From IMG/VR virus record IMGVR_UViG_3300031087_000514: 64,000 nucleotides of DNA. One strand, 5' to 3'. Position 1 is the first letter of the stretch; every line of letters begins with the position of its first letter. Below the pieces are notes generated by a model. It was not told the DNA's origin. It saw nothing but the letters and a program-made list of their open reading frames with translations, and searched no databases. Of this stretch, positions 5,557 to 35,662 are shown piece by piece. The stretch is from a virus (lineage: Duplodnaviria; Heunggongvirae; Uroviricota; Caudoviricetes). Position numbers and translations under genes: made by a program.

Positions 5557-5600
5557 GAAAATGGCAGAACCTGTAAATTCAGGTTCTGCCATTTTCTATA
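5557..5600. terminator. bidirectional terminator
   Basis: 18-bp stem agaaaatggcagaacctg/caggttctgccattttct. Confidence 0.8.
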
Positions 5601-5613
5601 AACTGTATCGTTA

Positions 5614-6194: not shown

Positions 6195-6198
6195 TTAA

Positions 6199-6243
6199 CC
6201 TAAAAATCCCGATAGTTGCGTATACTCTCAACTATCGGGATTT
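6199..6243 (-). terminator. rho-independent terminator for minus-strand gene 6257..6883
   Basis: 15-bp stem aaatcccgatagttg/caactatcgggattt; U-run on minus strand (plus taaaaa). Confidence 0.7.
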
Positions 6244-6256
6244 AGGCTGCCTGTGA

Positions 6257-6883: not shown

Positions 6884-6939
6884 GTTGCTCCTATCGGATG
6901 TTTTTCGGTATGTCTATAAAGCTATGGTATCATACTTAC

Positions 6940-7215
6940 ATGAGATTCTTACTCCCACTTATTTTCGTTATCGTTGTAGCATTCCTGGCTTGGGCTGCTT
7001 TCAATTTCATTCGTGGTTCTTCATCTGGTTCAGGTGGGAACAGAGGTGCAGGCGGTTCGGATGGAGGAACCTACACGAATAACTTTACCAGTGATTCCTC
7101 AGACAACCATCACAGCGGCCATTACGGAAGCTCTGGCGGTGGTGACTTCGGCGGAGGAGATTCAGGCGGTGGAGACTCTGGTGGGGGCGACGGTGGTGGC
7201 GGAGGAGGCGACTAA
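6940..7215 (+). CDS. small membrane protein with Gly/Asp-rich repetitive tail
   Basis: MRFLLPLIFVIVVAFLAWAAF TM helix then (GGGD/S) repeats; start uncertain (6862/6910/6940 in frame). Confidence 0.45.
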   Translation: MRFLLPLIFVIVVAFLAWAAFNFIRGSSSGSGGNRGAGGSDGGTYTNNFTSDSSDNHHSGHYGSSGGGDFGGGDSGGGDSGGGDGGGGGGD

Positions 7216-7229
7216 GCTTCTCACCATTA

Positions 7230-7282
7230 AATAGTTGAAGGCGGTAACAGCGTGATGTTGTTACCGCCTTCAACTATTTAAT
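7230..7282. terminator. bidirectional terminator
   Basis: 20-bp stem aatagttgaaggcggtaaca/tgttaccgccttcaactatt. Confidence 0.75.
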
Positions 7283-7742
7283 ACTCAGTGCGAGTTGTGC
7301 TTTCTTTCCACACATTGAAAGGACTTACAGCATTTTCAATTCTCAGATGCTCAGCAACATCTCCAGCTGCAAGCTTCTCGTAGAACGCTGCGTCATCAAA
7401 GCCAGCATCAGCTGCATCATGGCGGTCAGCAGCGAACACAATGCGGTCAACACGTGACCACAATGCAGCGCCTAAGCACATGGGACATGGCTCACAGGAA
7501 GAGTACAGAATGCATCCTTCCAGACTAAACGTTTCCAACTGACGGCATGCTTCACGAATAGTATTCACTTCTGCATGCGCAGTCGGGTCATTCGTTGTCG
7601 TAACCGAATTACCGCAAGCGATTACTTTGCCAGACGGAGTGACAATAACTGCTCCGAACGGCCCACCATTACCTGAATAGACGTTATCCATTGCGATACG
7701 AATAGCAAGCTGGATGTAGTAACCATCGTAGTCGTCATTCAT
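7278..7742 (-). CDS. CDA-fold nucleoside/nucleotide deaminase (TadA/guanine deaminase-like)
   Basis: HAE ... PCxMC zinc-binding motifs; start ATG overlaps the ligase stop as ATGAATGA (alternative in-frame ATG at 7766). Confidence 0.65.
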   Translation of the reverse strand: MNDDYDGYYIQLAIRIAMDNVYSGNGGPFGAVIVTPSGKVIACGNSVTTTNDPTAHAEVNTIREACRQLETFSLEGCILYSSCEPCPMCLGAALWSRVDRIVFAADRHDAADAGFDDAAFYEKLAAGDVAEHLRIENAVSPFNVWKESTTRTEY

Positions 7743-8865
7743 TGTCATCACTCTCCACTTTGCCATTCAGGTTCCAGAAAGGCTTTTCAAACTCGGGCTG
7801 GATAAGCTTCCAGATGCTGTCAGAAATCTTCTTCTCAGAAGACTCATTGTAGTGACCACCGCTATGACGGCTGAACAGCATACCTACAAGCTTCTTATCC
7901 TGCTGCTGCACTGCAAAAGCATAGTCCTTCTGAGTGAAGTCATCAGGAAGAGAAGTAATTACGCTGTTATACGTGTTCTCTACTTCCTCACGCAGAGCAG
8001 CGAACTCTGCCAGAAGGTTGTCACGGGTGCGCTCAACGAAGTCAATGAACTCCTCAGGAAGGTCCTTCAACCAGCTGTCAAAGTCGTTACCACTGACAAG
8101 CATCTCCCAGATACGACGTGAAGATGCGCCAGTGATGATGCGATGAAGCTGAACGTAGTCGGCCTGCTTAATCTTCACACGAGTGTCAGTGTTCAGGAAG
8201 TGCACAACCAGACCCTCAGCGTTCTCACGCGGAGTTGCAGCAAGCGCCTCAGCAAGGTTCGTGTACTGGAACTGCTCAACCTTGTTCCACTTCCACTCAT
8301 CAATCTGAGATGCAGGCTCGCTGATACCAGTCTCAATGTTTACACGGGCAATCAGGATAAGGTCATCCATCTCACCATAGTTCAGCACAATACGGTTGGT
8401 CGGGTAGATAATCTCCCAAATGTACGTGTAGCCCTCAGCAGGCTCCCACTGACCGTCATACAGCTCCAAGTAACGCGCTGTTGCATGCTGAGCCTGCTCA
8501 GAAGCAAAGGAACCACGAGTGGAGATGTTCAGCGTGCCATCAGGAGTGCGGTAAGAGATACCCATGCTACCGTCAGCCTTATCGGAGACAACAGCAGGGC
8601 CAGTCAGAAGAGCCTGGTCAACATCAGGCTCGTTGTGGTTGAAGAACTTACCCAGAGGACGGGAAACAATTTCCTTTGTCTCAGCGTCAACAATAAGACC
8701 ACGTGCTGCCAAAGTTGCAGGGTTCCAAGCGCGCTCAAACTGAGCGACCTGTGAGTAGTCGTAAATCTCCAACGGCAGAGTAGGGTGTACCTGCTTATTG
8801 ATGTGCTTTGCTGCGAATGCTGCATCCCACATTTCCTTTGGAGCAATGTCATAGATAGTTGACAT
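7735..8865 (-). CDS. RNA ligase (nucleotidyltransferase superfamily)
   Basis: Motif I KADGS, downstream EGhVhK-like motifs; paralog of 18503..19741. Confidence 0.7.
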   Translation of the reverse strand: MSTIYDIAPKEMWDAAFAAKHINKQVHPTLPLEIYDYSQVAQFERAWNPATLAARGLIVDAETKEIVSRPLGKFFNHNEPDVDQALLTGPAVVSDKADGSMGISYRTPDGTLNISTRGSFASEQAQHATARYLELYDGQWEPAEGYTYIWEIIYPTNRIVLNYGEMDDLILIARVNIETGISEPASQIDEWKWNKVEQFQYTNLAEALAATPRENAEGLVVHFLNTDTRVKIKQADYVQLHRIITGASSRRIWEMLVSGNDFDSWLKDLPEEFIDFVERTRDNLLAEFAALREEVENTYNSVITSLPDDFTQKDYAFAVQQQDKKLVGMLFSRHSGGHYNESSEKKISDSIWKLIQPEFEKPFWNLNGKVESDDNE

Positions 8866-8959
8866 GAAATAGTGTCTTTCTGTGTTTCTTCAATGGATCA
8901 ATTCGTACTGATAATAGCAGATATAAGCATCTTCGTCAACTGGTAGGAGGTCTTTCCTG

Positions 8960-9046
8960 CTTTGACAATGCCTGAACTGATATACTTTAGTAGCAGTAGT
9001 GATGTGACAATATTGTCACATTGGCCTCATGCAACAATATTGTCAC
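8960..9046. promoter_or_regulatory. divergent intergenic region with repeated palindromic operator-like sites
   Basis: Perfect 16-bp palindrome GTGACAATATTGTCAC at 9004-9019, second copy gcaACAATATTGTCAC at 9032-9046, half-site TTGACAATG at 8962-8970. Confidence 0.4.
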
Positions 9047-9070
9047 TTGCAACCTATTGGAAAGGCTATC

Positions 9071-9562
9071 ATGTCCTTAGCAGAAGATGAACGAACACAA
9101 CGATCCCGCGAAGCTGCCAGAGAGCGTTCTCGAGCGAAATCGATAAAGTTTGCAAAGATGAATGCAGAGGCTCGTCGTCTTTCGCAGGAAATGCCAGAAG
9201 AAGGATTGCCTCTCAGTATTTGGGCAGAAGAAATCAAACGGCGTTCAGGAGAACACGAGTACATTCTTCACATCCTTCATAATCTTGAAGGGGAAGTTCA
9301 TTACTCTTTGTCTAATGTTACAAGACTTCCAGGCTTGCAAAGCGCAGACCCTCAGTATCTTTCAGAATACACGCCTTACTCCATCCCTGAGAGTGTTGAA
9401 CTTGACGAAGAAGTACTACGCCAGTACAATAAGTGGTCAATACTGAATACTCAGCGTGCATATGCTACACAAGCTTACATCCAGTCACAGCTTGATTCAG
9501 GAAACGAGATTCTCGTACGTAAGCCTGACGGAACAGTCGAAGTAGTTCGGTTTTCCTCATGA
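9071..9562 (+). CDS. hypothetical protein
   Basis: GGAAAGG RBS; Arg/Glu-rich N-terminus. Confidence 0.5.
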   Translation: MSLAEDERTQRSREAARERSRAKSIKFAKMNAEARRLSQEMPEEGLPLSIWAEEIKRRSGEHEYILHILHNLEGEVHYSLSNVTRLPGLQSADPQYLSEYTPYSIPESVELDEEVLRQYNKWSILNTQRAYATQAYIQSQLDSGNEILVRKPDGTVEVVRFSS

Positions 9563-9915
9563 GCGGAGAAGAGACGACTACGTTATGGAGACCAGTGGGT
9601 CCAAAGGAGTTAGCTCTTATCGCTCAGTCAGGTTACCAAAGTTTTCCTCCTAGATTGCCAGACCAGCCGATCTTTTACCCCGTTCTCAATGAGGATTATG
9701 CGAGTAAGATAGCCTCAGGATGGAACGCCAAACATGATGGTGGCGGGTTCGTAACGCAATTCCAAGTAGAAAAACAATTCATTGACCGCTACAAGGTCCA
9801 GCAGGTTGGCGGAGCAACAATTTTGGAATACTGGATACCTGCTGAAGACTTAGATGACTTCAACGAACATATCGTCGGATTCATTGAAGTCATCGCTGAA
9901 TACCCTTCGGTTTAA
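9559..9915 (+). CDS. hypothetical protein
   Basis: ATGA start/stop overlap with upstream gene. Confidence 0.5.
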   Translation: MSGEETTTLWRPVGPKELALIAQSGYQSFPPRLPDQPIFYPVLNEDYASKIASGWNAKHDGGGFVTQFQVEKQFIDRYKVQQVGGATILEYWIPAEDLDDFNEHIVGFIEVIAEYPSV

Positions 9916-10014: not shown

Positions 10015-11868
10015 ATGGCTCGTACAATTGGTATCGACCTTGGAACCACAAACTCAGCTGCTGCAATCCTTGAAGGTGGAGAAGCGACAGTCATTGCAAA
10101 CGCGGAAGGTGTTCGCACCACCCCATCCATCGTCGCATTCACAAAAGATGGTGATACGCTCGTCGGTGAAACCGCAAAACGTCAGGCAGTCACCAACGTT
10201 GACCGCACCATCCGCTCTGTAAAGCGCCACATGGGTACCACTTGGTCAACCACCATTGAGGGCAAGAAGTACACTGCTCAGGAAATCTCTGCCCGTATCC
10301 TCATGAAGCTCAAAAAGGATGCAGAGACCTACCTTGGTGAAGATGTTGACTCCGCTGTCATCACCGTTCCTGCCTACTTCAATGACGCTGAGCGTCAGGC
10401 AACCAAAGAAGCTGGCGAGATTGCTGGACTGAAAGTTCTCCGTATTGTCAATGAGCCTACCGCCGCAGCAATTGCGTACGGTCTTGACAAGGTAAAAGAA
10501 TCCGAAACTGTTCTCATCTACGACCTCGGTGGTGGAACCTTCGACGTGTCCCTTCTTGACATTGACAAAGACTCTGATGATGGCTTCGCAACCATTGAGG
10601 TACGCGCAACCGCAGGTGATAACCGACTCGGCGGCGATGACTGGGACAAGGCCCTGGTTGATTACATCAACGAGCAGTTCAAGGCTGCTTCTAGTGTTGA
10701 CATCACAGGTGACAAGATTGCTCAGCAGCGTATCCGCGAGGGTGCAGAGCAGGCTAAGAAAGAGCTTTCCAGCGGTAGCAGCACAAGCGTTCAGCTCCCG
10801 TATATCTCTCTCACCTCTGAGGGTCCTCTGAACTTGGATGTTACTATTACCCGTGCGAAGTTTGAAGAGTTGACCAAACCTCTCCTTGACCGCACTAAGA
10901 AGCCATTTGAGCAGGTTCTTGCCGATGCTGGTATTACCACAAGTGACATTGCGAACGTTATTCTTGTTGGTGGTTCAACTCGTATGCCTGCTGTTGTTGA
11001 CCTGGTGAAGTCTTTGACAGGCAAGCAGCCCTCCCAGAATGTGAACCCTGATGAGGTTGTTGCTCTCGGTGCAGCTGTTCAGGCTGGTGTTGTGACTGGT
11101 GAGCGTAAGGATATCCTCCTGATTGACGTTACCCCGCTGTCTCTTGGTTTGGAGACTGCGGGTGGAGTTATGACGAAGCTCATTGAGCGGAACACTGCCA
11201 TTCCTACTAAGCGTAGTGAGACCTTCACTACTGCGGTTGATAACCAGCCGTCTGTTGCTGTTCAGGTCTTCCAGGGTGAGCGTGAGTTTACTCGTGATAA
11301 CAAGAAGCTCGGTCAGTTTGAGTTGACAGGTATCGCTCCTGCTCCTCGTGGCCTTCCTCAGATCGAGGTAACTTTCGACATTGACGCAAACGGTATCGTT
11401 CACGTCTCTGCGAAGGATAAGGGTACTGGCCGCGAGCAGAAGATTACCATCACAGGTGGTTCTTCCCTTTCCCAGGCTGACATCGACCGTATGGTCCGTG
11501 ACGCTGAGGAGCACGCTGCTGAGGACAAGGCTAAGCGTGAGTCCCAGGACCTTCGCAACCAGGCTGAGCAGTTGACCTACTCTGCTGAGAAGGTTCTTGT
11601 GGACTACGCTGACCAGGTTCCTGCTGATGTCAAAGAGGAAGTCACTAACGACATCAACGCTTTGAAGAAGGCTCTAAATGAGGGTTCTGATGATGACGTG
11701 AAAGCTGCTGTGGAGCGTTTGAACCAGTCTCAGCAGAAGGTTGGTCAAAGCGTCTACGGTAACCAGGCACAGGCTGACACAGCCCCTTCTGAGGAAGCTA
11801 ACCAGGCTCCTGCTGGTGGTAGCGAGGATGAAGATGTTGTTGACGCAGAAATTGTTGACGAGGACTAA
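10015..11868 (+). CDS. dnaK: molecular chaperone DnaK (Hsp70)
   Basis: [29 protein letters not shown] Hsp70 signatures; full length 617 aa. Confidence 0.95.
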
Positions 11869-15552: not shown

Positions 15553-16455
15553 ATGTCTCAGCATATTAAAGTGTTACGCGGTGTTCAGGGTTCTGGTAAA
15601 TCAACCGAAGCCTTGAAGTGGGTTCGTCAGGACCCTCTGAATCGCGCCCGCGTAAACCGAGATGACATCCGTTTGACTAACTTCGGCTCATATGACCTTC
15701 CTCAGGAGTTGGAGTATGCTGTTACGAAGATTGAACATCAGCTGATTCGTACACTGTTGAAGGCGAAGAAGAGCGTTGTTGTTGACAACGTGAACTTGCG
15801 TGCAAAGTACGTGAAAGAGTACTTGCTGATTGCTGATGAGTTCAATGTTCCTGTTCTGTATCAGGATTTTCCTGTGGAGCTGGAAGTTGCATTAGCTCGT
15901 AATGCTGCTCGTGAGCGTAAGGTGCCTGAGGATGTTATTGTCAAGACTCATAAGCGATACATCCAGAGCGGTAAGTTCCCTGAGTTCCCTCAGCTGAGTT
16001 ACGACATGTCTGGGCTGTACGTTCCTGATGAGACCCTTCCGAAGGCTATCCTGTTGGATGTTGATGGCACGGCTATGAAGATTGGCAAGCACCGTGGCCC
16101 TTATGATTTCGATAAGGTCATTGATGATGAGCCGAACTTCCCTGTCATTACCACTGTGCAGTCCCTTGTCGCACATGAAGGCTATAAGGTGATTGTCATG
16201 TCAGGCCGTGATGAGATTTGCAAGCAGGATACTCTGTTTTCTTTGGAAGTTGCAGGGGTTCCTGTTGATGAAATCTACATGCGTCCTCAGGGGGACCGCC
16301 GCCCTGATACTGTTATCAAGCGTGAGTTGTTTGATGCGAATGTTCGTAACCGTTTTAACGTGTTGTTCGCACTTGATGACAGAGATGTTGTGATTGACAT
16401 GTATAGAAAAGACTTGGGCTTGACTGTTTTTCAGGTTGATTACGGGAACTTCTAA
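15553..16455 (+). CDS. pnk: polynucleotide 5'-kinase/3'-phosphatase (T4 Pnkp-like)
   Basis: P-loop GVQGSGKST kinase domain plus DVDGT HAD-phosphatase motif; AAGGA RBS. Confidence 0.8.
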   Translation: MSQHIKVLRGVQGSGKSTEALKWVRQDPLNRARVNRDDIRLTNFGSYDLPQELEYAVTKIEHQLIRTLLKAKKSVVVDNVNLRAKYVKEYLLIADEFNVPVLYQDFPVELEVALARNAARERKVPEDVIVKTHKRYIQSGKFPEFPQLSYDMSGLYVPDETLPKAILLDVDGTAMKIGKHRGPYDFDKVIDDEPNFPVITTVQSLVAHEGYKVIVMSGRDEICKQDTLFSLEVAGVPVDEIYMRPQGDRRPDTVIKRELFDANVRNRFNVLFALDDRDVVIDMYRKDLGLTVFQVDYGNF

Positions 16456-17777: not shown

Positions 17778-18444
17778 TTGAAGCAAGGCGTTGAAGGAGT
17801 TCAGGTTTGTTCACATTTGTGAAACCTGAACTCCTTTGCTTTTCCCAGATAGAGTTCAATTGGTTCACCACAGTTTCAGTAGGGATGCGTGTTTTGTTGA
17901 GAAGAAGAAAGTTTGTGTTCACACTACGGTCAGTTCCACCAACACCAGCTTTACCTGCATTGCGCCCAGTTCTTTGTACGAAAAAATCAGAATGAGCTGT
18001 GCAGAAGTAGAATCCTTTCACCCTGTTGACAAGTTCAACAGAGCGAGTATCTTCTTGGTATGACCATAGTTGGAAAAGCTCTTCGCTGTACTTCCACGAT
18101 TTGGTTAAATGTAGATGCGGATGCACCTTGCTTAACAAGGAAGGGCGATCAAAAGTCTTAGGGAGAAGAAAAGCAACTGCGTCAGCGAATTCAGCTGCAT
18201 GTTTGAAGTACTTGATCGTGGTGTGATGATGTGCAAGCTTTGGTGGTTCACCTAAGACTAATGTTTTTGCATCATCTCTGACCCATGTATTTCTGAGAAA
18301 ATCAAGAGGTTCAGGTACCCAAATTTCAGCATCAGGGAAGAAAGGTTTGTCATAACTGACATCAATAATGCGATCATAGTCTGCAATGTGAATACGGCTG
18401 AGACCTTCTTCTGGGTCCCATTGCTCAATGGGTTGTAAGTTCAT
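17731..18444 (-). CDS. hypothetical protein
   Basis: Start set at MNLQPIEQ (AAGGA RBS) rather than the longer ORF. Confidence 0.5.
   Translation of the reverse strand: MNLQPIEQWDPEEGLSRIHIADYDRIIDVSYDKPFFPDAEIWVPEPLDFLRNTWVRDDAKTLVLGEPPKLAHHHTTIKYFKHAAEFADAVAFLLPKTFDRPSLLSKVHPHLHLTKSWKYSEELFQLWSYQEDTRSVELVNRVKGFYFCTAHSDFFVQRTGRNAGKAGVGGTDRSVNTNFLLLNKTRIPTETVVNQLNSIWEKQRSSGFTNVNKPELLQRLASITEQLHSTSYEEQGT
17794..17846. terminator. hairpin terminator
   Basis: 15-bp stem aaggagttcaggttt/aaacctgaactcctt followed by tgcttttcc. Confidence 0.7.
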
Positions 18445-18502
18445 CGTTTCGTATCCTTTTTCACATGCGTTTCGTAACTTCTTCTTCGTTAGATATATCA
18501 GC

Positions 18503-19741
18503 ATGACTACCACTCGTAAACCACCTTATTTGCATGCTGACGGTTCAAATTGTTGGACAAAGCATTGCTCCCGCCGCACCAAGGAAAGCAATGATCGTGC
18601 TTCCTTCTTCAAGCAGGTTGAAAAGACCCCAGCTGCGAAGCTTCCTACCAACCTTCCTCCACTGTCAGCGTTCCAGAAAGCTCACGCTGAGGGCCGTATT
18701 GAGAAGTCTGAACACCCAAATTACCCTTACGTGACCTACAAATACGCGCGTACTACGCAGTTCGCTTCTGACTGGGATGATGTCACACTTGCTTCTCGTG
18801 GAATCATCTTTAACAAGGAAACCGGAGAAGTTGTTGCACGTCCATTTGCAAAGTTCTTCAACTACAATGAACCTTCCGTGCCTACTGATAAACTTCATGG
18901 TCGTGTGAGCGTCACTGACAAACTTGATGGTTCATTAGGTATTGGTTACGTTGATGAGGACGGTAAGTTCAACATTGCTACTTCTGGTAGCTTTATCTCT
19001 GAACAGTCTAAACATGCTACTCGTATATACCAAGAGAAGTATGAAGGTAAGTGGAATCCAAATCCAAACATGACATACATGTGGGAAATCATTTACCCTG
19101 AGAACCGTGTTGTTGTCAACTATGGCGATGAGGACGACTTGCACCTTATCGGTGCTGTCAATAAGCGCACTGGTAAGAGCGTCCCATTAGGTGATATCAA
19201 AGAGTGGAAGTGGAAGCGTGCAGAAGAGTACAAGAATATTTCTTCTCTTGACTCTGTACTTGCCACTCCTGACCGTGAGAACCGTGAAGGTTTCATTGTC
19301 CACTACATTGATACTGACACTCGCGTAAAGTACAAGCATGAGCAGTACTTGAACATTCACCGTGTTGCTACTGGTGTTACTTCTAAGACTATCTGGCGCA
19401 AGATGTCTTTGGGTGAAGATATGGACAGCTGGAAGAGTGGAATTCCTGAGGAGTTCACTGACTTCATTTCTGAACGTCAGAACAAAATTCGCGCAAACTA
19501 CGATAATGAAGTCAGTAAAGTTGTTGCTGACCACGCGAAGTTCAAAGCTTCTATGCCTGCTTCATATGAACGTAAAGACTTCGCTGTTACATTGAAGAAT
19601 TCTTCTGTAGTTCCAGCTGAGAATAAACCATTCATTATGAATTATGAATTCAACGGTAAAGTAGCAACAAACGAGGTGCAAGCTCGTAAAATTTGGGAGC
19701 GCATCAAGCCTACCGATGAGGATACTTTCTGGAACATGTAA
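18503..19741 (+). CDS. RNA ligase paralog with about 60-aa N-terminal extension
   Basis: Motif I KLDGS; homologous to 7735..8865 from residue about 60; GTTAG box at 18488 (N10 spacing) supports the 18503 ATG. Confidence 0.7.
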   Translation: MTTTRKPPYLHADGSNCWTKHCSRRTKESNDRASFFKQVEKTPAAKLPTNLPPLSAFQKAHAEGRIEKSEHPNYPYVTYKYARTTQFASDWDDVTLASRGIIFNKETGEVVARPFAKFFNYNEPSVPTDKLHGRVSVTDKLDGSLGIGYVDEDGKFNIATSGSFISEQSKHATRIYQEKYEGKWNPNPNMTYMWEIIYPENRVVVNYGDEDDLHLIGAVNKRTGKSVPLGDIKEWKWKRAEEYKNISSLDSVLATPDRENREGFIVHYIDTDTRVKYKHEQYLNIHRVATGVTSKTIWRKMSLGEDMDSWKSGIPEEFTDFISERQNKIRANYDNEVSKVVADHAKFKASMPASYERKDFAVTLKNSSVVPAENKPFIMNYEFNGKVATNEVQARKIWERIKPTDEDTFWNM

Positions 19742-20133: not shown

Positions 20134-21087
20134 ATGAAAGTATACAACGACACAGTTGTAATGACTGACTCCCTGATCCGCATGCTTGATAGATATCGCG
20201 CTGAACGAGGTTTTAACGCCTCAGAATGGGTTGAGCGTAAAGTTGCTCTCATCAACGCTTATTTCACGCAGAGTGGCCTGTCAGGGGCTGTTGTAGGGGT
20301 CTCAGGAGGTATTGACTCCGCTGTTGCTCTTTCTCTTGTCGTGAAAGCATCACAGGTGGAAGACAGTCCAATCAAGAAGATTGTTCCGATTCTTCTCCCC
20401 GCATTTTCTTACACAGGAGCTACCCGTCAGAACGAAGCTACAAACCGAGCAGAAAGCCTGTGCACAAAACTTGGACTCGAAGCAGTCATCTTCCATCAGC
20501 TCACACCAATGGCTGAAATGATGAATGCAGAATTAGAGAACGTTTTGGGAATTCGGGCAACCCCTTGGGCAAAAGGCCAGTTAGTTGCATACACCCGAAC
20601 CCCAATCCTGTACAGCACCTGCTCCATTCTCACGGACGCAGGATATCCAGCCTTAGTCATTGGAACTACAAATCTGTCAGAAGGTGGATACTTAGGTTAT
20701 GTCGGTAAAGCCGCTGATGGCATGGTTGACTTGCAGGTAGTGAGTGACTTGTACAAATCAGAAGTGTACCAAGTTGCGGAACTGCTAGAAGTACCAAACC
20801 TCATTATGAAAGCAACACCAACAGGAGACATGTTTGACGGTCGGGATGACGAAACAGTGTTCGGAGCTTCCTACGACTTCGTGGAACTCTACCACCTCTG
20901 GCTGCAAAATGGCTCCGACCCTGAACTTCTGAAGGATGAAACATTCGCAGCAGGAGCGGCGAACCTTGAAAAGATGCACGCTTACAACGGTCATAAATAT
21001 CTGTACGGTACACCATCAGTTCATTTGGATATACTTCGTGCAGACATCCCTGGTGGTTGGAATAACAAAGCTTGGAGCGCTGAATAA
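20134..21087 (+). CDS. NadE-like PP-loop amidotransferase/NAD+ synthetase family protein
   Basis: SGGIDS PP-loop motif; AAAGGA RBS for the 20134 ATG; first gene of a 3-gene overlapping operon. Confidence 0.7.
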   Translation: MKVYNDTVVMTDSLIRMLDRYRAERGFNASEWVERKVALINAYFTQSGLSGAVVGVSGGIDSAVALSLVVKASQVEDSPIKKIVPILLPAFSYTGATRQNEATNRAESLCTKLGLEAVIFHQLTPMAEMMNAELENVLGIRATPWAKGQLVAYTRTPILYSTCSILTDAGYPALVIGTTNLSEGGYLGYVGKAADGMVDLQVVSDLYKSEVYQVAELLEVPNLIMKATPTGDMFDGRDDETVFGASYDFVELYHLWLQNGSDPELLKDETFAAGAANLEKMHAYNGHKYLYGTPSVHLDILRADIPGGWNNKAWSAE

Positions 21088-21827
21088 TGGCGACCAAATT
21101 TGTCAACCAAATTGACTTCACTATTCCAGCTATCCAACATGAAGTTGAAGTGGAGCCACTTCCTGAGTTAGACCGTTCAGCAGTGGTTATCCCTAACCTT
21201 ATCCCAAGCAAAGAACGAGCTCATATTCTCCAAGAACTCAGTAAAGCGAACTGGCAGCCAGTATCCATCACCGGAATGTCAGGTAACTGGAAGCCAGGGG
21301 ATGAAATTGGGTCTTACCGAGCCTCAAACTACACACCAGAATATGCCACTGTATTATGGGACAGAATCAAACACGCTTTCCCAACAGTTCGAGTGTTCAA
21401 TCAGGAAGACAACACTGATTTTGATGACCACGAACTCTGGGAACCTGTTGGAGTTTCTCCACTGCTTCGTTTCATCAAATACGAAGATGGAGGCTGGCTT
21501 GTTGTTCACTATGACGCTCCATATGTTGAAGATGAGGACACCAGGACACTGCAAAGCTTTGTTATTTACTTAGAACAGAGTCCCACGATTACAGGTGGAG
21601 CAACTCGATACCTGCAAGACCCGCAAGCAGGGATTCCTATTGCTCAACGTATTTTAGATGACCAGAAACGTGCAGCAACCGAGGATGAAGTCCGTCTTCG
21701 TTTCATCCCTGAAAATGGAACAGGTGCCATCTTTGACCACAGACTTCTTCACGATGCTGAGCTCGTTCAGGGCGAAGGTCACAAAATTATTATCCGTACC
21801 GACATTATGTACAGGAAAGTCCGATGA
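21087..21827 (+). CDS. 2OG-Fe(II) oxygenase (prolyl-4-hydroxylase-like)
   Basis: HYD ... H facial triad (VVHYDAPY; IFDHRLLHDAE) and RTD Arg; TAATG/ATGA overlaps with neighbours. Confidence 0.6.
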   Translation: MATKFVNQIDFTIPAIQHEVEVEPLPELDRSAVVIPNLIPSKERAHILQELSKANWQPVSITGMSGNWKPGDEIGSYRASNYTPEYATVLWDRIKHAFPTVRVFNQEDNTDFDDHELWEPVGVSPLLRFIKYEDGGWLVVHYDAPYVEDEDTRTLQSFVIYLEQSPTITGGATRYLQDPQAGIPIAQRILDDQKRAATEDEVRLRFIPENGTGAIFDHRLLHDAELVQGEGHKIIIRTDIMYRKVR

Positions 21828-23335
21828 AAACAGACCGCTATTTTGATGCGTTATACGAACGCACTCACAGTGAACAGGATTTAACAACAGCTGGTTGGTT
21901 AGAAAAGCCAACGCAAGTGAACCAGCAGTTACGGTATTACACAACGCCAGTTGATGCTATCCGTGATGCAGGCAAGGAAGAAGTCTCTGTTCTGTTTTAC
22001 CCAGGATGTTTCGCCCCAGTGCATGAAGGTCATATCACTGCAATGCGCTTAGCCAAGGAAGCTGTCGAAGCGACAGGCGAAACAGTGGTCGCTGGTTTCT
22101 TCACACCAGACCATGATGACTACATTATGCGTAAAACGCATGATGAACGTTTCACAGCAGCGAACCGGGTAGAGCTGCTACATGCAGTAACTAAAACAGA
22201 AACATGGATGCAGGTAGACCCTTGGGCTGCTCAGTATGCTCCTACTGATTTGAACTTCACCACATTGTATGATCGTTTGAATCAATACCTCAAACGTTGG
22301 GTACCAAACGTCAAAGTAAAGCTCTACATGGTGTTTGGTGGAGACAACTACATGTTCGCTAATGCTTTCACTGAATATGGGTATGGGGTTTGCGTTCCTC
22401 GTGAAGGAGTTTCTATTGACTGGACCACAGTCCATCCTGATGCTCAAAAGCGTGTAGTTCTCAGTACGAAAAGCAGCACAAATCATTCATCCACAGCGGC
22501 CCGAGCAATGTACTCAAACCCTGCTGAAAAAGGTGGTCGGAGTACGATGGGTAAGCGCTACGTCCTTCGCAACGATTTAGATGCAGCATTTGAGAACACT
22601 ACGGAGTACCCGAATTATCTTATCGCTCAGACTCTGCAGATTCTCTTCCACTCACATCTTCCAGAGGATATCAGTGTCCAAACAGTTGATATTCATGACC
22701 AGTTCCAGCATCATCAGGAAAAAGCTGGGATCATTTCAATGGATTCATTTTGGAAAGCTGAATACAATCTTGACATTACCAGACTCTTCAATGCAGCAGG
22801 TGGCCAGAATCATCCGTTACGGTACATCAACCGCCCAGGTTCCGATGATTTGCAAACACAAATCAAACGAATCCCAGAAGGTGAATATGTACTTGCAGAT
22901 GACGACATCGCTACTGGTGAAACCATGAAATTTGTTTCCAATGTGTTAGGCACTCACGGCATCAGAATTGTGGACACTCTAAGTCTTATCAATGAACTCA
23001 ACACTGACCTGTACGATTTAGCTGACATGAGAGACTATGTGTTAGGGGCAAAGAATGGTGGGTTGACCGTTGTTGCTCCAAACGGTCAAGTGACACGAAT
23101 GCCGTACTTTGCTTCCTATGTGAACGTTTCAGCAAGAACACGTATTCAGCCTAATAAAGCTCGCAGTTTCTCTATTGAAATTTGGAAGCTCAATCGCTCT
23201 TTGTATAAGAACAGTAGCCTTACCGTAGGAGACATTAAAGAGCATCAAGATTTCACCCTCTTTGGGTTCTCAGAGCAGATGCGGCTTGTTGAATTATGTG
23301 AGAAGCATTTAGAGCTGTTAGGTGTGCAAAGCTGA
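21824..23335 (+). CDS. bifunctional nicotinamide/nicotinate mononucleotide adenylyltransferase fused to type I phosphoribosyltransferase-like domain
   Basis: N-terminal FYPGCFAPVHEGH (H/T)xGH nucleotidyltransferase motif; C-terminal YVLADDDIATGETM PRPP-binding loop. Confidence 0.65.
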   Translation: MKTDRYFDALYERTHSEQDLTTAGWLEKPTQVNQQLRYYTTPVDAIRDAGKEEVSVLFYPGCFAPVHEGHITAMRLAKEAVEATGETVVAGFFTPDHDDYIMRKTHDERFTAANRVELLHAVTKTETWMQVDPWAAQYAPTDLNFTTLYDRLNQYLKRWVPNVKVKLYMVFGGDNYMFANAFTEYGYGVCVPREGVSIDWTTVHPDAQKRVVLSTKSSTNHSSTAARAMYSNPAEKGGRSTMGKRYVLRNDLDAAFENTTEYPNYLIAQTLQILFHSHLPEDISVQTVDIHDQFQHHQEKAGIISMDSFWKAEYNLDITRLFNAAGGQNHPLRYINRPGSDDLQTQIKRIPEGEYVLADDDIATGETMKFVSNVLGTHGIRIVDTLSLINELNTDLYDLADMRDYVLGAKNGGLTVVAPNGQVTRMPYFASYVNVSARTRIQPNKARSFSIEIWKLNRSLYKNSSLTVGDIKEHQDFTLFGFSEQMRLVELCEKHLELLGVQS

Positions 23336-23352: not shown

Positions 23353-23946
23353 ATGTTCGCTGTACTCACCGCCTTAGGCTTATCTGTTTCCGCAGGACTC
23401 AACGCGTACCTGCCGTTACTTGCTGTTGGTCTTCTCACCAAATACACTGATGTGTTTCAGCTTCCCAACGGATGGTCCTGGCTGAATCAAGATTGGGTGC
23501 TGATTCTATTCGGGTTACTTGCATTAGCTGAGTTTGTCGCAGATAAAGTTCCAGCGATTGACACATTCAACGACATTATTCAAACAGTAGTACGCCCTTC
23601 ATCAGGAGGTGTCGTATTTGCAGTAGGAATAGGTTCACATACTACTCCTATCACAAATTGGGATGCGTTCATTCATTCACAAGCGTTTCCTAGCATTGTT
23701 GTAGGTGTGGTGATTGCATTGATTCCACATTTGATGAAGATGCTCATCCGTCCAGTCTTAAATGCAACAACTGCTGGGTTAGCTACCCCGTTAGTGAGTT
23801 TCGGTGAAGATGTCATTTCGGTAGCATTGATTGCATTATCCATTTTCCTTCCTATCCTTGTCCCAGTAGCAGTAGTGCTACTCTTCATCATCGCTGTACG
23901 AGTTATCAAACGGTTGCGTAGTAGGACGCAGGTGCAAACAGCATAA
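23353..23946 (+). CDS. polytopic membrane protein
   Basis: 4-5 hydrophobic segments. Confidence 0.5.
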   Translation: MFAVLTALGLSVSAGLNAYLPLLAVGLLTKYTDVFQLPNGWSWLNQDWVLILFGLLALAEFVADKVPAIDTFNDIIQTVVRPSSGGVVFAVGIGSHTTPITNWDAFIHSQAFPSIVVGVVIALIPHLMKMLIRPVLNATTAGLATPLVSFGEDVISVALIALSIFLPILVPVAVVLLFIIAVRVIKRLRSRTQVQTA

Positions 23947-24717: not shown

Positions 24718-25974
24718 ATGGTTTCAAAACCAGAACGGGGTCGATACTTGACCCTAGAAGATGTCCGTGTTTCATATAAGCACAAAGATGACACCATCCA
24801 TCTCACCTCAGCTGACCCAGATATTCCAAACGGGTCATTCTACATTACGTTGAATCGTGATACTCCAACCGAAGAAGCTCTCAGAGAACTACTGATTGAG
24901 CGCGGTTATATCAAAGAGAATGATGCTGTCTCTAAGCCAGAAGACACTCAACTGGATTCTATTTACTCATACCGCCCACGGAACCCATTACAGGATTTGC
25001 TTGTGGATAGTTTAGTAGGGAGAGGTAACGTCAACTTCCCTCGTTATGTCCATATTTCAGGACAGCCAGGATGTGGAAAAACATTTTTAGCGGCTCAAAC
25101 CGTGGAAGAAGCTTCTGCTATGGGAATCAATACATATATCATCTCTGCAGATGTACAAGCTTACCTTCCCAAAGTTCAAGGTACTTGTACAACTATAAAT
25201 TTACCAGATTTACCAGAAGGCTCTCTGAACCCTTTTGCTTTAGGTTTGAATGTAGATGAGATACTGAATTTTTTGATTAACTTTATTCTACCTTTGAATA
25301 TTGGGAATATTGATACGCCAGATGGTGCTTATTTTTACGCACAGTATCGTGATCTACTACGAAAAAGTATTGGTCTTGTAGCTACTTACGAGGAGCCTTC
25401 TTTAGATAAAATAGTAGAAAATTTAGAGTCAAAAGTTACATTTGATAGTAAAGTTCAGCTACAAACTTCATTAAAAAGGCTAAAAAAGACAGAATTCGGA
25501 CATCTTCTTTTTGGTACATCACTATACGTAAAAGATATGATTGTAGATAAACACATAATAATTGATACTGGGGCTTTGCCTTATGTTAGTGTGTCACTTT
25601 TGCCTGATACATACACCGTTGAACAATTGGCAGCTGTCCTTATCAAGAAAATAATTGTCAATATTCTCAATAAGAAAATAAACAATTCAAGTCGTCCCAG
25701 TTTGTTCATTATTGAAGAGTCGATAGATTTAGCTGAGGAGATGATTCCTATAATTCGTTCAAAAAATATTACGCTTATTACAATAAACCAAGAACCTATT
25801 ACCCAGTCTAATCTCCGTTTAAGTTCTTCTGCAAATCAGATGATTGGTCGTTCGTCCGACCGAAGCACCCAAGATGCAGTAGATTTGCCCTTAGACAAAC
25901 TGAGCACAGGAGAATTCTTTTGGTACGACATCAACACAGGGAACACTGAGTTTTATAAATCTGCTATTGATTAA
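24718..25974 (+). CDS. P-loop NTPase (Walker A GQPGCGKT, Walker B LFIIEES)
   Basis: AAGGAAAA RBS; C-terminal two thirds strikingly AT-rich. Confidence 0.6.
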   Translation: MVSKPERGRYLTLEDVRVSYKHKDDTIHLTSADPDIPNGSFYITLNRDTPTEEALRELLIERGYIKENDAVSKPEDTQLDSIYSYRPRNPLQDLLVDSLVGRGNVNFPRYVHISGQPGCGKTFLAAQTVEEASAMGINTYIISADVQAYLPKVQGTCTTINLPDLPEGSLNPFALGLNVDEILNFLINFILPLNIGNIDTPDGAYFYAQYRDLLRKSIGLVATYEEPSLDKIVENLESKVTFDSKVQLQTSLKRLKKTEFGHLLFGTSLYVKDMIVDKHIIIDTGALPYVSVSLLPDTYTVEQLAAVLIKKIIVNILNKKINNSSRPSLFIIEESIDLAEEMIPIIRSKNITLITINQEPITQSNLRLSSSANQMIGRSSDRSTQDAVDLPLDKLSTGEFFWYDINTGNTEFYKSAID

Positions 25975-25977
25975 TGA

Positions 25978-26030
25978 GTAAAGGCGGGTCAGAGTAAATA
26001 TATACTCTGACCCGCCTTTACTTTCATTTG
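25978..26030. terminator. bidirectional terminator
   Basis: 18-bp stem gtaaaggcgggtcagagt/actctgacccgcctttac. Confidence 0.8.
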
Positions 26031-27498: not shown

Positions 27499-28344
27499 AT
27501 GACCACTTTACAGAAGCACATCATTGAAACCCTCGGAGTGAAAGCGAAAGTCAACCCAGAGGAAGAGTTCCGCACTCGTGTAGACTTCCTCAAAGCTTTC
27601 ACTAAAAATGCAGGAACACGTGGATTCGTCCTCGGGATCAGTGGAGGGCAGGATAGTGCTCTGGCTGGATACGTTGCTCAGACAGCTGTTCGTGAGCTCC
27701 GTGATGAAACAGGCAAAGACTATGAATTCCTTGCCCTGCTCCTTCCATACGGTACACAGCGGGACGGGGATGAAGCAGTAACCATCGCAAAAGACTTCAT
27801 CAAAGCCGACCAGGTAATTGAATACAACATCAAAGACACTGTAGATGCTTTCGCAAACACCTTCAACACTATTGCAGATGCTGACCCTGCAAACGGTGAC
27901 AACCTTGCCGACTACCACAAAGGTAACGTCAAAGCACGTGTCCGCGCCATCACACAGTACGCATATGCTGGACAGCGCCAGCTTCTTGTTGTGGGGACCG
28001 ACCATGCAGCAGAAGCGGTCTCGGGATTTTTCACGAAGTTCGGGGACGGTGCTGCTGATGTTTTGCCTCTTAGTGGTTTAAATAAACGCCAGGGTAAAGA
28101 AGTTCTCCGTTTCTTGGGTGCTCCTGAATTTGTCATCACCAAAGCCCCTACTGCTGACCTTTTGGACACTAACGCAGGTCAGGCTGATGAGACTGAACTT
28201 GGCATCACCTACGATGTGCTGGATGACTACCTTGAAGGCAAGACTGTCGCAGAAGCTGCTCAGCAGAAGATTGAACTTCGTTACCTGGTGACTGAACACA
28301 AGCGTCAGCAGCCTGTTGACCCTTTTGCTGACTGGTGGAAGTAA
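27499..28344 (+). CDS. nadE: NH3-dependent NAD+ synthetase
   Basis: Canonical 281-aa NadE with SGGQDS PP-loop; AGGAAGGAA RBS. Confidence 0.85.
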
Positions 28345-28354
28345 AATTCAGTAA

Positions 28355-28395
28355 GTGAAGAAAAACTCTCATACTCGAGAGTTTTTCTTCACTTA
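28355..28395. terminator. hairpin terminator
   Basis: 16-bp stem gtgaagaaaaactctc/gagagtttttcttcac. Confidence 0.7.
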
Positions 28396-30046: not shown

Positions 30047-32545
30047 ATGAATAGCCGTTTTACGGATTTAGCTTTGCAAATCGTCCGCCGCGCTGTTGCC
30101 ATTGCAACTGATGCTGGAGCCTCACAGGCAGGAAGTGAGTATTTCCTCTTAGCGTTGGTTGAGAATGACAACACTAAGGCAAAATTTAACAACATTGGTG
30201 TTACAGCTGACAATCTTTCTCGTTTGATTGCCACCTCTTTTCCACCTTCCTCAGCTGATCGTTTCAGTAAAGAAGGGAAGAGTTTCACTGATGAAGCAAA
30301 AAACATCATTGAGAAAGCTTTCCACACTGCTTTGAATGTTGCCACCCAGAAGAAGGTCTCCACTGATGTGTTGATTCTTTCTATTCTTCGGGAAGCGAAC
30401 TCCCACGCTCACCGTTGCCTTGAAATGCTTGCAGTTGACATCCAGCAGTTGGAAACCATCGTCCTTGCCAGCATCAGCTCTTCCAATGGCGAAGAGCGCA
30501 CTTCCGGTGCAGTATCTGAACCTGACATGGCTATGTCTGGTGCGCGTGCGCAGAATGCTAACAGCAAGACTGCTATGTTGGAACAGTTCGCTACGAACCT
30601 TTCCGCTCTTGCTCGTGATGGGAAACTTGACCCTGTAATTGGTCGTTCAAAAGAAATTGAGCGCACCTTGCAGGTTCTTTCACGCCGCACCAAGAACAAT
30701 CCTATTCTGGTTGGTGAGCCAGGTGTTGGTAAGACTGCTATTATTGAAGGTCTTGCACAGACTCTGATTGACTCTGACGTTATCCCTGACTCCATCAAGG
30801 GCCGTGATGTTTGGTCCTTGGACCTGGCTGGCATCCTCGCTGGAACAAAATACCGTGGTGACTTTGAGCAGCGGTTGAAGAAGCTTGTCAAAGAGATTCA
30901 GACTGCAAATGTCATCGTCTTCATTGACGAGATTCACTCCCTCATCACTGCTGGTGGTGGGGAAGGTTCACTGAACGCTGCCAACATCCTCAAGCCTGTA
31001 CTGGCTCGTGGTGAAATGCAGACAATTGGTGCAACCACGTATGATGAGTTCCGCAAGCATTTTGAGAAAGATGCTGCAATGGCACGCCGTTTCCAGCAGG
31101 TTGATGTGGTTGAGCCTACTGTTCCTGATGCTATTCAGATTCTCAAAGGTCTACGTGGAGAGTATGAGAAGCACCACAAGATTACTCTGACAGACAAAGC
31201 TATTGAAGCTGCTGTCACGCTGTCTTCTCGTTACATCAATGACCGTTTCCTTCCTGACAAGGCTATTGACTTGATGGATGAAGCTGGGGCGAAAGCAAAG
31301 ATTTCACGTCTGACTACTCCTGCTCCGTTGAAAGCTCTGGAAGTTGACCTTCTTGACCTTATCGCTAAGAAGGAGAAAGCTATTGAAGCTGAGGATTTCC
31401 TTGCTGCTGCTGACCTTCGCAATGAAGAGTCGAAGCTGAAGAAGGTTCTTGCTGAGGAAACTGATAAGCACCGCTCCTCCGATGACACAACAGTTGTTAC
31501 TGATGTTGACATTGCTGCTGTTTTGACTGCTGCAACAGGCATTCCTGTCACTCTTGTGCAGGATGAAAGCAAGCGTCTTGTTTCCATGGAAACAGAAATT
31601 GCTGCTCGTGTTGTTGGTCAGAAAGCTGCCATTCAGACAGTTGCTCGTAGTGTTCGTCGTCAGCGTGCAGGTCTGAAAGACCCGAACCGTCCAGCAGGTT
31701 CATTCATCTTTGCTGGTCCGACAGGTGTTGGTAAGACTGAGCTTGCGAAAGCTCTTGCCCAGTTCCTGTTCCAGGATGAGTCAGCTCTTATCTCACTTGA
31801 TATGAGTGAGTATGGCGAGAAGCACACAGTTTCCCGTCTGTTCGGTGCCCCTCCTGGATATGTTGGACATGAAGAAGGTGGACAGCTGACTGAGCGTGTT
31901 CGTCGTAAGCCGTACAGTGTTATCCTGTTTGATGAGATTGAAAAAGCTCACCCTGATGTATTCAACCCACTTTTGCAGGTTCTGGAAGAGGGCCGTTTGA
32001 CTGATGGGCAAGGCCGTGTTATTGACTTCAAGAACACCATCATCATCATGACAACAAACTTGGGTGCCAGTAAACTGGCATCAGGCCCAATGGGCTTCCA
32101 GGTGTTTGGCAACGCTGACGCTTCCTACGAAGCTATGAAGAACAAAGTCATGACTGAGTTGAAGCAAGAGTTCAAGCCTGAGTTCCTGAACCGCCTTGAC
32201 GATATGGTTGTCTTCCCTCACCTGACCGAAGAAGACCTCATCGAAATCATCGATGTGTTCATCGCTCGCCTCAATGTTCGCCTTGTGGATAACAACTTCA
32301 CTGTTGACCTTACACCTGCTGCGAAGAAATATGTCGTCAGTGTCGGATACGACCAGACATTGGGTGCGCGACCATTGCGTAGAGCAATGCAGCAGTTGGT
32401 TGAAGATGGTATCAGTGAAATGATGCTCTTCGGAACTGTTGAAAGCGGAGAAAATATTGTTGTTGATTACGTCAACGAAACTCTCACATTCAATGGGCGA
32501 AACAGGGATGAAATTACATTCCCTGCGGAGCCACTGGAAGCGTAA
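30047..32545 (+). CDS. clpC: Clp ATPase, ClpC/ClpB family (two Clp_N repeats, two AAA+ modules)
   Basis: [10 protein letters not shown] and [15 protein letters not shown] Walker A motifs, short middle domain, 832 aa. Confidence 0.9.
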
Positions 32546-34709: not shown

Positions 34710-34764
34710 CCTTTGCTCATGTTCTATATTTATCTACCAGTTAGATATAGAACATGAGCAAAGG
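34710..34764 (+). promoter_or_regulatory. 20-bp perfect inverted repeat sequestering the GTTAG box and start codon of the ART gene
   Basis: cctttgctcatgttctatat / atatagaacatgagcaaagg with 15-nt loop; ATG 34754 lies in the 3' arm; no U-run. Confidence 0.5.
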
Positions 34765-35662
34765 CATTAAACAAGCAGATGGAACACTCTGTTACGCAAA
34801 GAATCCAGATACCTGCAAAAACCATGGATCACCGTCACCTTTTGATCTTTTCGAAGCTGCGATGGCGAAAAAGGATATTGGTGGAAGACTCAATGCGCAA
34901 GTGATGTACAAAAAACACATGCATACCCAATTAGCTGCTCAGTTCCAAAATAACAAGCCTGCCGCAACACAGGTAATTTCGGGTTTTAGGGATTACAGTT
35001 CGCAGTCAGTAGAAGCATTGAAGGAATACAATGAAGAATATCAACAAGCTTCTACTAACTGGTCAGATGACCAAAGAACTGCAATCAAAGACTATACAGG
35101 TTTGAGCTACAAGAATGTAAATGAGTTCCTTCGTAATAAAGAGGAATGGTTAGAAAAAGCTACACCTCAATACAAAGATAAGATGGTAGCACATGTTAAT
35201 GAAGTAATTGAGCAGCTTGATTCTGTCATGGATCAGACATCTAATACGAAATCAAGAACTGTGTATAGAAATGTCTCACAAGACACTACGAAGGCTTTCA
35301 CGTCTTCTGAGGAGTTTGCTCATCGTAATGGCTGGGTTGAAGGTAAAGAGGTAGAATTTCCTTCTTATCTTTCAACATCCTACGACCCACACTACATGGC
35401 TCATCAGCTTGGACAGGATGAAAGCGAGCATACAGATGTTGTATTCGTAATGGAAACGAACAAGGGAGTTCCTGTTGATATGACTGCATTAGATGCCAAA
35501 GGTCACACGTATGTGCAAGACGCAGAGCGGGAGATTCTTCTTCCTCGCAGTATGCGTTTCAGGGTCAGTAAAGTAACTCGCAGTGTTGGTTTTGAACCCT
35601 ATGAAGAAAACAACAATAGTAGAGCTGTTTTCCCTCTGACTGTGTATCTTGAAGAGCTGTAG
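34754..35662 (+). CDS. ADP-ribosyltransferase (R-S-E class), third paralog
   Basis: VYRNVS, YLSTSY, QDAEREILLPR motifs; N-term CYAKNPDTCKNHG; GTTAG box 34740-34753. Confidence 0.7.
   Translation: MSKGIKQADGTLCYAKNPDTCKNHGSPSPFDLFEAAMAKKDIGGRLNAQVMYKKHMHTQLAAQFQNNKPAATQVISGFRDYSSQSVEALKEYNEEYQQASTNWSDDQRTAIKDYTGLSYKNVNEFLRNKEEWLEKATPQYKDKMVAHVNEVIEQLDSVMDQTSNTKSRTVYRNVSQDTTKAFTSSEEFAHRNGWVEGKEVEFPSYLSTSYDPHYMAHQLGQDESEHTDVVFVMETNKGVPVDMTALDAKGHTYVQDAEREILLPRSMRFRVSKVTRSVGFEPYEENNNSRAVFPLTVYLEEL

Follow-up and report, generated by a model that had tools for sequence, protein, structure and literature searches.

A conserved module of a NadE-like protein, an oxygenase and an NMNAT-phosphoribosyltransferase fusion in a phage-like genome, predicted to build a nicotinamide-type dinucleotide

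What might a virus with a very large genome make with enzymes that resemble parts of NAD+ biosynthesis and are encoded together with an oxygenase? This question is raised by an operon at positions 20134-23335 of a 64,000-nucleotide stretch (hereafter the window) of the IMG/VR record IMGVR_UViG_3300031087_000514 (Caudoviricetes). Its three overlapping genes code for a NadE-like protein, a Fe(II)/2-oxoglutarate (2OG) oxygenase and a fusion of an NMN adenylyltransferase (NMNAT) domain with a phosphoribosyltransferase (PRTase) domain. A first-pass annotation had grouped this operon with a canonical nadE, pncA, a membrane protein of PnuC size and an efflux-type pump as a Preiss-Handler toolkit that could convert nicotinamide (Nam) to nicotinate (NA), nicotinate mononucleotide (NaMN), nicotinate adenine dinucleotide (NaAD) and then NAD+. 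Our analyses instead direct attention to the conserved module of NadE-like protein, oxygenase or radical S-adenosylmethionine (SAM) enzyme, NMNAT and type I PRTase, rather than to the window-wide toolkit. We lean towards the view that the operon is the split form of a conserved four-domain system whose product would be a dinucleotide of the nicotinamide type, most probably NAD+, assembled from a carboxylated free base, 5-phosphoribosyl 1-pyrophosphate (PRPP), ATP and a nitrogen donor.

The open reading frame (ORF) map of the window shows the three genes in the same direction, with junctions formed by TAATG and ATGA overlaps, so that they are translationally coupled (Table 1). The operon architecture given in the first-pass annotation agrees with these ORFs, with their overlaps and with the domain matches. 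We placed the start of the NadE-like gene at the ATG at position 20134, which follows an AAGGA ribosome-binding site and which public gene calls on identical contigs also use; an alternative, longer ORF opens at position 20077.

The NadE-like protein harbours the SGGxDS motif of the PP-loop. It scores 100 bits against TIGR00552 (cutoff 63.65) and remains far under the cutoffs of all equivalog models. Its closest relatives of solved structure are NadE of P. horikoshii (5.7e-18) and chain 3fiu (5e-15), which was deposited as an NH3-dependent NAD+ synthetase and which we take to be the NMN synthetase of Francisella; the canonical NadE of the window itself is matched at only ~1e-12. With 728 relatives in the databases, the protein is predicted to be a member of a divergent subfamily of NH3-type NAD synthetases that pairs with the fusion gene. 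Its constant association with a redox enzyme, described below, and its coexistence with a canonical NadE suggest that its substrate differs from that of the latter.

The facial triad, the basic 2OG-binding residue and the double-stranded beta-helix fold of the Fe(II)/2OG oxygenases (P4H/PKHD) are all present in the second protein. It matches Pfam 2OG-FeII_Oxy_3 (1.1e-6), and its HxD...H metal triad and 2OG-binding Arg are intact and invariant across 39 homologues. The predicted model has a pLDDT of 95.8, and the nearest structures are OGFOD1, PiuC, PolD and a viral prolyl hydroxylase.

The N-terminal half of the fusion protein matches Pfam CTP_transf_like (6e-10), with single-sequence matches to NMNAT1/3. 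The family profile retrieves the NMNAT 9rpk (3.5e-26) as well as the human and yeast NMNATs (~1e-16), and residues G61, P65, H67, H70, S223 and R227 are invariant. Both the motifs and the best match place this domain among the NMNATs, with 39 bits against a cutoff of 112 for the NCBIfam equivalog. The C-terminal domain has the core five-stranded alpha/beta fold of the PRTases and a PRPP-binding loop of type I (DDDIATGET at residue 359; sequence YVLADDDIATGET), in which D360, D361 and G365 are invariant and T367 nearly so in 38 homologues. The family profile aligns this loop with those of APRT, HPRT and ComF, and the fold is also similar to OPRT, APRT and HGXPRT; Pfam Pribosyltran matches the domain with an E value of 0.15 only. 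Loop, fold and NMNAT profile matches are thus in line with the proposed fusion of a type I PRTase to an NMNAT. We regard the C-terminal domain as a predicted type I PRTase of putative base specificity. A generic Prs, which the first-pass annotation had named as the alternative to be checked, is not its top match, and the protein has a single such domain. An Adps/Prs-like pyrophosphokinase, as in the phage NAD+ reconstitution pathway NARP1, was rejected on these same grounds and because no Namat is encoded in the window.

A word-indexed search yielded 51 relatives of the fusion protein. Clustering of the fusions at 70% identity gave 28 lineages, from huge-phage contigs and some bacterial metagenome-assembled genomes (MAGs), and we considered as linked the genes within 8 kb of the fusion gene. 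The latter is found on 25 IMG/VR contigs, which often measure 180-465 kb, and full-length copies are also present on 11 bacterial MAG contigs. A NadE-like gene is linked to it in 22 of the 28 lineages; conserved in 22 independent lineages, the operon is not a chance arrangement. Each of these 22 lineages has exactly one class of redox enzyme, namely the 2OG oxygenase (13 lineages), a 291-residue radical SAM protein that we named rSAM-A (six) or a radical SAM protein of 366-373 residues that we named rSAM-C (three). The redox gene is at most 350 nt from the NadE-like gene in 20 of the 22 cases, and at several loci the NadE-like protein and the 2OG oxygenase are fused into one protein of 590-606 residues.

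We also searched 1.84 billion representative proteins with a profile of the PRT-like domain, with clusters defined at 50% identity. The family is large, comprising 1174 clusters, and is concentrated in very large uncultivated phage genomes; most of its proteins have 490-640 residues and end with the PRT-like domain. Among the 150 top-ranking proteins, eight are much longer, with 1048-1208 residues. A Pfam scan of five long proteins found NAD_synthase, 2OG-FeII_Oxy_3, CTP_transf_like and then the PRT-like domain in four of them (P0308, P0329, P0363 and P0365), which is the order of the operon in the window; in the fifth, P0351, the 2OG match falls short of significance. Based on the genetic linkage and on these in-order, four-domain single proteins, the four domains are predicted to be one functional unit. 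Natural polypeptides of this kind also represent ready-made constructs for biochemistry. A fusion variant with an extra, C-terminal GNAT acetyltransferase domain (705-714 residues) was observed at positions 7872-10016 of L013, a Christensenella MAG contig, and in P0283.

The occurrence of a redox enzyme in all 22 lineages and the four-domain fusions indicate that an oxidative step belongs to the pathway. This bears on plain Preiss-Handler salvage, in which PncA would provide nicotinate, the type I PRTase would serve as a non-orthologous nicotinate PRTase, the NMNAT would form NaAD, and the NadE-like protein, NadE or both would complete NAD+, with the oxygenase as a passenger. All the enzyme classes that such a pathway needs are encoded in the window, its three activities PRTase, NMNAT and NadE-like are tightly linked, and gut jumbo phages with canonical pncB-nadD-nadE clusters are known from a published sequence analysis (PMC11662467). 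Nevertheless, a redox enzyme that is present in every lineage and fused in frame is no passenger. Furthermore, PncA is encoded 36 kb from the operon and at no other locus shows linkage to the module, the NadE-like protein repeatedly has a canonical NadE as its neighbour, and some islands also contain NAMPT and NadM or a NAPRTase-family gene. We thus hold plain salvage to be decidedly improbable. Of the toolkit as first annotated, the NAD theme and the enzyme classes stand. The scheme from Nam to NA, NaMN, NaAD and NAD+ is incomplete, since it has no redox step and so leaves the oxygenase or radical SAM partner unexplained, and PncA, the membrane protein and the pump are not associated with the module at other loci.

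The four-domain reading that we favour accommodates the redox partner. The PRTase domain would first join the base to PRPP, giving a mononucleotide; its fusion to an NMNAT indicates that this product is the substrate of the latter, a pyridine-type mononucleotide, which the NMNAT domain would then adenylylate. The constant NadE-like partner points to a base carboxylate that ends as a carboxamide. The NadE-like protein would activate this carboxylate with ATP and convert it, or alternatively act on the mononucleotide, as the NMN synthetase of Francisella is reported to do. The oxygenase would contribute a redox step that is obligatory and coupled to the reaction of the NadE-like protein, a radical SAM enzyme replacing it in the relatives from gut-anaerobe MAGs. 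As the redox gene always adjoins the NadE-like gene or is fused with it, a role coupled to amidation is favoured. Candidate roles are the preparation of the base, the processing of the nitrogen donor or of an amide intermediate, and the modification of the product or dinucleotide; the donor's nitrogen might be obtained by oxidative deamination or by oxidation of an amino-acid conjugate that sets the amide free. The module could in this way give the phage its own supply of an NAD-type cofactor, with canonical NadE and PncA loosely associated and feeding in nicotinate derived from nicotinamide. Its logic would be that of the Preiss-Handler pathway, except that a type I PRTase replaces PncB, and it agrees with neighbouring genes that revolve around NAD and ADP-ribose. 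The links of the module to the ADP-ribosyltransferases (ARTs) of the window and to NADase defences, also proposed initially, are putative.

The distribution of the redox enzymes is consistent with alternative enzymes in one pathway. The rSAM-A versions of the module are found in Clostridiales, Christensenella and Elusimicrobia MAGs and on related viral contigs, and the 2OG versions in MAGs of Bdellovibrionales, Alpha- and Gammaproteobacteria and Obscuribacterales. We take the former taxa to be anaerobes and the latter aerobes. Such a split would be the expected pattern for an O2-independent and an O2-dependent enzyme in the same pathway. The radical SAM partners have only generic matches (TrsS, Tes, MoaA, viperin), and PDB searches with them were uninformative.

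Several observations weigh against the four-domain reading. We know of no type I PRTase that uses nicotinate or nicotinamide; the enzymes described as NAPRT, NAMPT and QPRT all belong to type II. The PRTase match covers ~100 of 261 residues, with Z scores of at most 7. With scores far under the equivalog cutoffs, the NadE-like protein may act on a substrate other than NaAD or NaMN. The synthesis of NAD+ from nicotinate requires no redox step, so that the input or the output of the module would depart from the textbook. The fusion gene has no NadE-like gene within 8 kb in six lineages. In several islands that contain NAMPT and NadM, i.e. a complete NARP2, and in locus L057 with its NAPRTase_N protein, an additional plain route to NAD+ would look redundant. 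Finally, all members of the module are known from sequence alone.

A constant O2-dependent or radical enzyme implies chemistry outside textbook NAD+ synthesis. We tentatively entertain that phages have one more pathway to NAD-type cofactors, the fourth and a chemically distinct one, whose product would be either NAD+ itself, made by new chemistry, or a modified analogue of NAD. Such chemistry could combine a type I pyridine PRTase with an oxidative, ammonia-independent formation of the carboxamide: the NadE-like protein would couple an amino acid to the carboxylate, and the oxygenase would then split the conjugate, much as peptidylglycine amidating monooxygenase does. A modified product might be used by the phage ARTs or blunt host NADase immunity.

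The analogue itself, with a hydroxylated or oxidized base or ribose, might be an orthogonal cofactor for the ARTs or a decoy or inhibitor of NADase defences. In addition to the obligatory redox partner, the structural neighbours of the oxygenase include PolD, an enzyme of nucleoside antibiotics, and the best family matches of rSAM-A include MoaA and viperin, which act on nucleotides. Complete conventional NAD+ routes coexist with the module in some islands, and the window has three ART-like genes. However, the 2OG and radical SAM enzymes may do different jobs, most of the proteins nearest to the oxygenase are protein hydroxylases, and such a cofactor has no natural precedent known to us. An analogue as the product of the module is thus unlikely in our opinion.

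The genes around the module at other loci were surveyed next to those of the window. NAD-themed neighbours occur in some islands: NAMPT, NadM-Nudix, ADP-ribosylglycohydrolase and canonical NadE. A separate NAMPT gene is found in L012, L017 and L033, and L057 has a gene matching NAPRTase_N at 9.5 kb from the module. A canonical-type NadE is encoded near the module in the window and in L012, L014 and L056; this recurrence argues that it and the NadE-like protein are not simply redundant. An Asp/Glu racemase family gene directly precedes the module in L007, L056 and L057, and an Orn/DAP decarboxylase-like gene is upstream of it in L009 and L013. PncA, YgjV, the major facilitator superfamily (MFS) pump and DUF4126 showed no linkage to the module at any other locus surveyed.

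The Elusimicrobia MAG contigs L011, L012 and L014 harbour NAD-themed islands of about ten genes in their first ~100-9600 positions. The order is NAMPT (L012 only), canonical-type NadE (L012 and L014), NadM-Nudix, radical SAM genes and then the NadE-like and fusion genes, with two or three radical SAM paralogues and a second radical SAM family. The six lineages whose fusion gene has neither a NadE-like nor a redox gene within 8 kb (L034, L035, L037, L040, L041 and L043; IMG/VR contigs of 182-465 kb) share a downstream trio of proteins of ~90-125, 220-310 and 350-635 residues.

Among cultured phages, the only relative that we identified is a distant version of the module in the Acinetobacter phage vB_AbaM_ME3. 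ME3_305 is an orthologous 2OG oxygenase (hhalign 99.9%), and ME3_299 is a stand-alone PRT-like homologue (Foldseek 4.8e-10, hhalign 95.8%) with a degenerate PRPP loop, YDHDIVNG. An adjacent NadE (the genes of interest comprise ME3_305, ME3_299 and ME3_298) is 29% identical to the NadE-like protein, and a macro-domain gene is also present, all of them beside a Ter cluster. Unlike in the window, no NMNAT domain was found alongside, and the genes are separated by small ORFs.

This version of the module brings in another possibility, that of a nucleotide-like metabolite unrelated to NAD, a signal or a toxin, for which NMNAT-like and NadE-like enzymes would have been recruited to another carboxylated heterocycle. 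The Ter cluster next to the ME3 genes encodes PRTases and a HAD enzyme, and PMC7824862 describes the PRTase/HAD genes of Ter clusters as predicted to make a nucleotide-like metabolite. The Asp/Glu racemase or Orn/DAP decarboxylase genes at some loci would be compatible with such a product, as would the resemblance of the PRTase fold to OPRT, APRT and HGXPRT, which take other bases. Nevertheless, the adenylyltransferase and the amidating enzyme belong squarely to NAD-specific families, and the neighbouring genes code for NAD and ADP-ribose enzymes, not for other nucleotide pathways. Such a metabolite therefore appears very improbable.

NAD+ depletion is a major anti-phage strategy of bacteria, and the phage pathways NARP1 to NARP3 were characterized in the last few years. 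The comparison of the module with these and other known systems supports the initial proposal that the route differs from NARP1 and NARP2. NARP1 (Adps and Namat) is likewise a phage system of NAD+ reconstitution with an enzyme of the PRPP-synthetase/PRTase fold class, but neither an Adps (Prs-like) nor a Namat (NAMPT-like) Pfam architecture was detected in the window. In NARP2 (NAMPT and NMNAT, e.g. NadV/NatV of Vibrio phage KVP40), a phage-encoded PRTase also precedes an NMNAT. However, that PRTase is a type II NAMPT acting on nicotinamide, with no amidation, whereas the module combines a type I PRTase with amidating and redox enzymes; the window has the NMNAT domain and no NAMPT. NARP3 pairs a PnuC-like transporter with a NadR-like enzyme (PMC13464706), and the window resembles it in encoding an NMNAT-class adenylyltransferase and a small multi-pass membrane protein. 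However, the fusion has no ribosylnicotinamide kinase domain, and the membrane protein is of the YgjV family, with no PnuC match at E<=10, and is encoded 15 kb away on the other strand.

Like the Preiss-Handler clusters of gut jumbo phages, the window, part of a very large phage-like genome, groups a nicotinamidase with an NMN/NaMN adenylyltransferase domain and with amidation of the NAD synthetase type. The differences are that type II PncB is missing from the window, a type I PRTase being fused to the NMNAT instead, that the NadE partner in the module is divergent, and that the module always includes a Fe/2OG oxygenase or a radical SAM enzyme in addition. The Asp-Lys-Cys triad and the metal site of PncA are present, and no NAPRTase or NAMPT Pfam match was obtained among the called genes of the window. 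Lastly, the Francisella NMN synthetase route, in which NadE* amidates NaMN and NadM yields NAD+, provides an example in which the amide is introduced into the mononucleotide and an adenylyltransferase that prefers NMN then takes over. It includes no oxygenase and no type I PRTase, and the similarity of the NadE-like protein of the module to its enzyme is modest (5e-15).

Literature searches for NARP4, NMNAT-PRTase fusions and phage Preiss-Handler pathways returned no description of the module. It is absent from PMC11662467 and from the sections consulted of the phage NAD surveys PMC9503650 and PMC7824862, and term searches of the NARP1/2 preprint and of PMC13464706 found nothing on it. The idea of a phage Preiss-Handler pathway is thus not new in itself; what appears to be undescribed is the four-domain module. 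If our reading is correct, it would be the first route to pyridine nucleotides based on a type I PRTase, and the definition of its product would yield either a new mechanism of counter-defence or a new metabolite resembling NAD.

Table 1. Positions of the operon, its domains and other features in the window.
Feature	Position	Strand	Length	Matches or motifs
NadE-like PP-loop ATPase	20134-21087	+	317 aa	SGGIDS P-loop at residue 57; Pfam NAD_synthase 2.7e-30
Fe(II)/2OG oxygenase, P4H/PKHD (OGFOD1/PiuC/PolD-like) clade	21087-21827	+	246 aa
Fusion gene, NMNAT and divergent type I PRTase fold	21824-23335	+	503 aa
Fusion, N-terminal domain: NMN/NaMN adenylyltransferase, eukaryote-type NMNAT family	21824-22549	+		GCFAPVHEGH and SSTAARA motifs
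Fusion, C-terminal domain: divergent type I PRTase fold with family-specific helical extension	22550-23335	+		intact PRPP-binding loop
DUF4126 membrane protein	23353-23946	+		Pfam DUF4126 8.8e-49
ORF without assigned function	to 24617	+	206/224 aa
P-loop ATPase-like ORF	24718-25974	+	418 aa	weak AAA_10
Terminator-like hairpin, strong	25976-26023	+		20-bp stem
Canonical NH3-dependent NAD+ synthetase NadE	27499-28344	+	281 aa	NF001979 342.6 bits (cutoff 250); Pfam 2.8e-63
PncA nicotinamidase/pyrazinamidase	59391-59978	+	195 aa	2.3e-49 to M. tuberculosis PncA (3pl1); Pfam Isochorismatase 6e-21
Imp-YgjV family inner-membrane protein	38767-39486	-	239 aa	PF10688 9.4e-15
DHA2-type MFS efflux-like transporter	43321-44769	-	482 aa	MFS_1 1.7e-34; best NCBIfam Tet(43)-like, 245 bits, under cutoff
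Two tandem ART-like genes	602-1630 and 1661-2692	+		Pfam ADPrib_exo_Tox, weak for the first
Third ART-like gene	34754-35662	+		Pfam ADPrib_exo_Tox

The genes that follow the operon up to position 25974 probably share its transcription unit, which the hairpin behind them likely ends. The DUF4126 gene and the downstream ORFs were rejected as parts of the module, as they are kept solely in near-identical contigs and are absent at more distant loci. A second hairpin with a 20-bp stem lies directly 3' of the canonical NadE gene (28352-28395); the scan placed it on the minus strand.

Among the other NAD-related genes, canonical nadE, pncA and the three ARTs were correctly called in the first-pass annotation, one of the ARTs with a weak match. 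In PncA, D8, K96 and C138 and the metal ligands D49, H51, H57 and H71 all have aligned, conserved counterparts, in what we take to be the numbering of the PncA literature. This protein is unusually close to PncA of M. tuberculosis over its full length, which may hint at the origin of the gene or at the host. The membrane protein that had been taken for a possible PnuC belongs to the Imp-YgjV family instead: no match to Pfam NMN_transporter (PnuC) was obtained even at E<=10, nor any match in PDB, and we found no literature tying YgjV to NAD. YgjV and PnuC presumably share one Pfam clan. The MFS pump is of the DHA2 type, as proposed; a role in NAD metabolism did not hold, as no link to it was found. 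We also considered this pump as a niacin transporter, which is unsupported, since it resembles DHA2 efflux pumps and MFS genes show no linkage to the module.

Identical genes were found in three ENA samples, on contigs of 878,479, 880,409 and 880,603 bp (ERZ27247405 k141_830180, ERZ27247428 k141_538707 and ERZ27247389 k141_483817). The longest contig of the cluster listing has 883,042 bp, and relatives are on contigs of ~437-980 kb. The gene content of the window is phage-like, with ARTs resembling T4 Alt/Mod, Rnl1-like ligases, two polynucleotide kinase/phosphatases (PNKPs), a CCA-adding enzyme, RNase H, NucS, DnaK, ClpB, gyrase, primase and many ORFs without a family. No capsid, terminase or other structural gene is present within the 64 kb. 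A megablast search of INPHARED with the operon and a tblastn search with the fusion gave no match, and an exact search of IMG/VR with a 38-mer was likewise negative, so that the element matches no deposited phage. This gene content and the IMG/VR relatives of 180-465 kb that carry the module make it plausible that the latter is phage-borne, which we consider likely. The largest phage genomes cited in PMC11662467 have 735 kb and 716 kb; if the ~880-kb replicon is a complete phage genome, it is larger than these.

The RNA-repair set of the window consists of two T4 Rnl1-like ligases, two PNKP-like kinase/phosphatases, a small ORF with an RNA_ligase domain and an enzyme of the CCA-adding/poly(A) polymerase family, at 7735-8865 (-), 18428-19741 (+), 15553-16455 (+), 36808-37851 (+), 47813-48265 (+) and 48365-49804 (+). 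A 1015-residue protein with an Amidoligase_2 domain and a faint KTSC match is encoded at 54702-57749 (+). Full-length DnaK (HSP70) and ClpB-type chaperone genes are at 10015-11868 (+) and 30047-32545 (+), and gyrase B is at 61226-63331, with gyrase A and the DnaG primase just past the end of the window.

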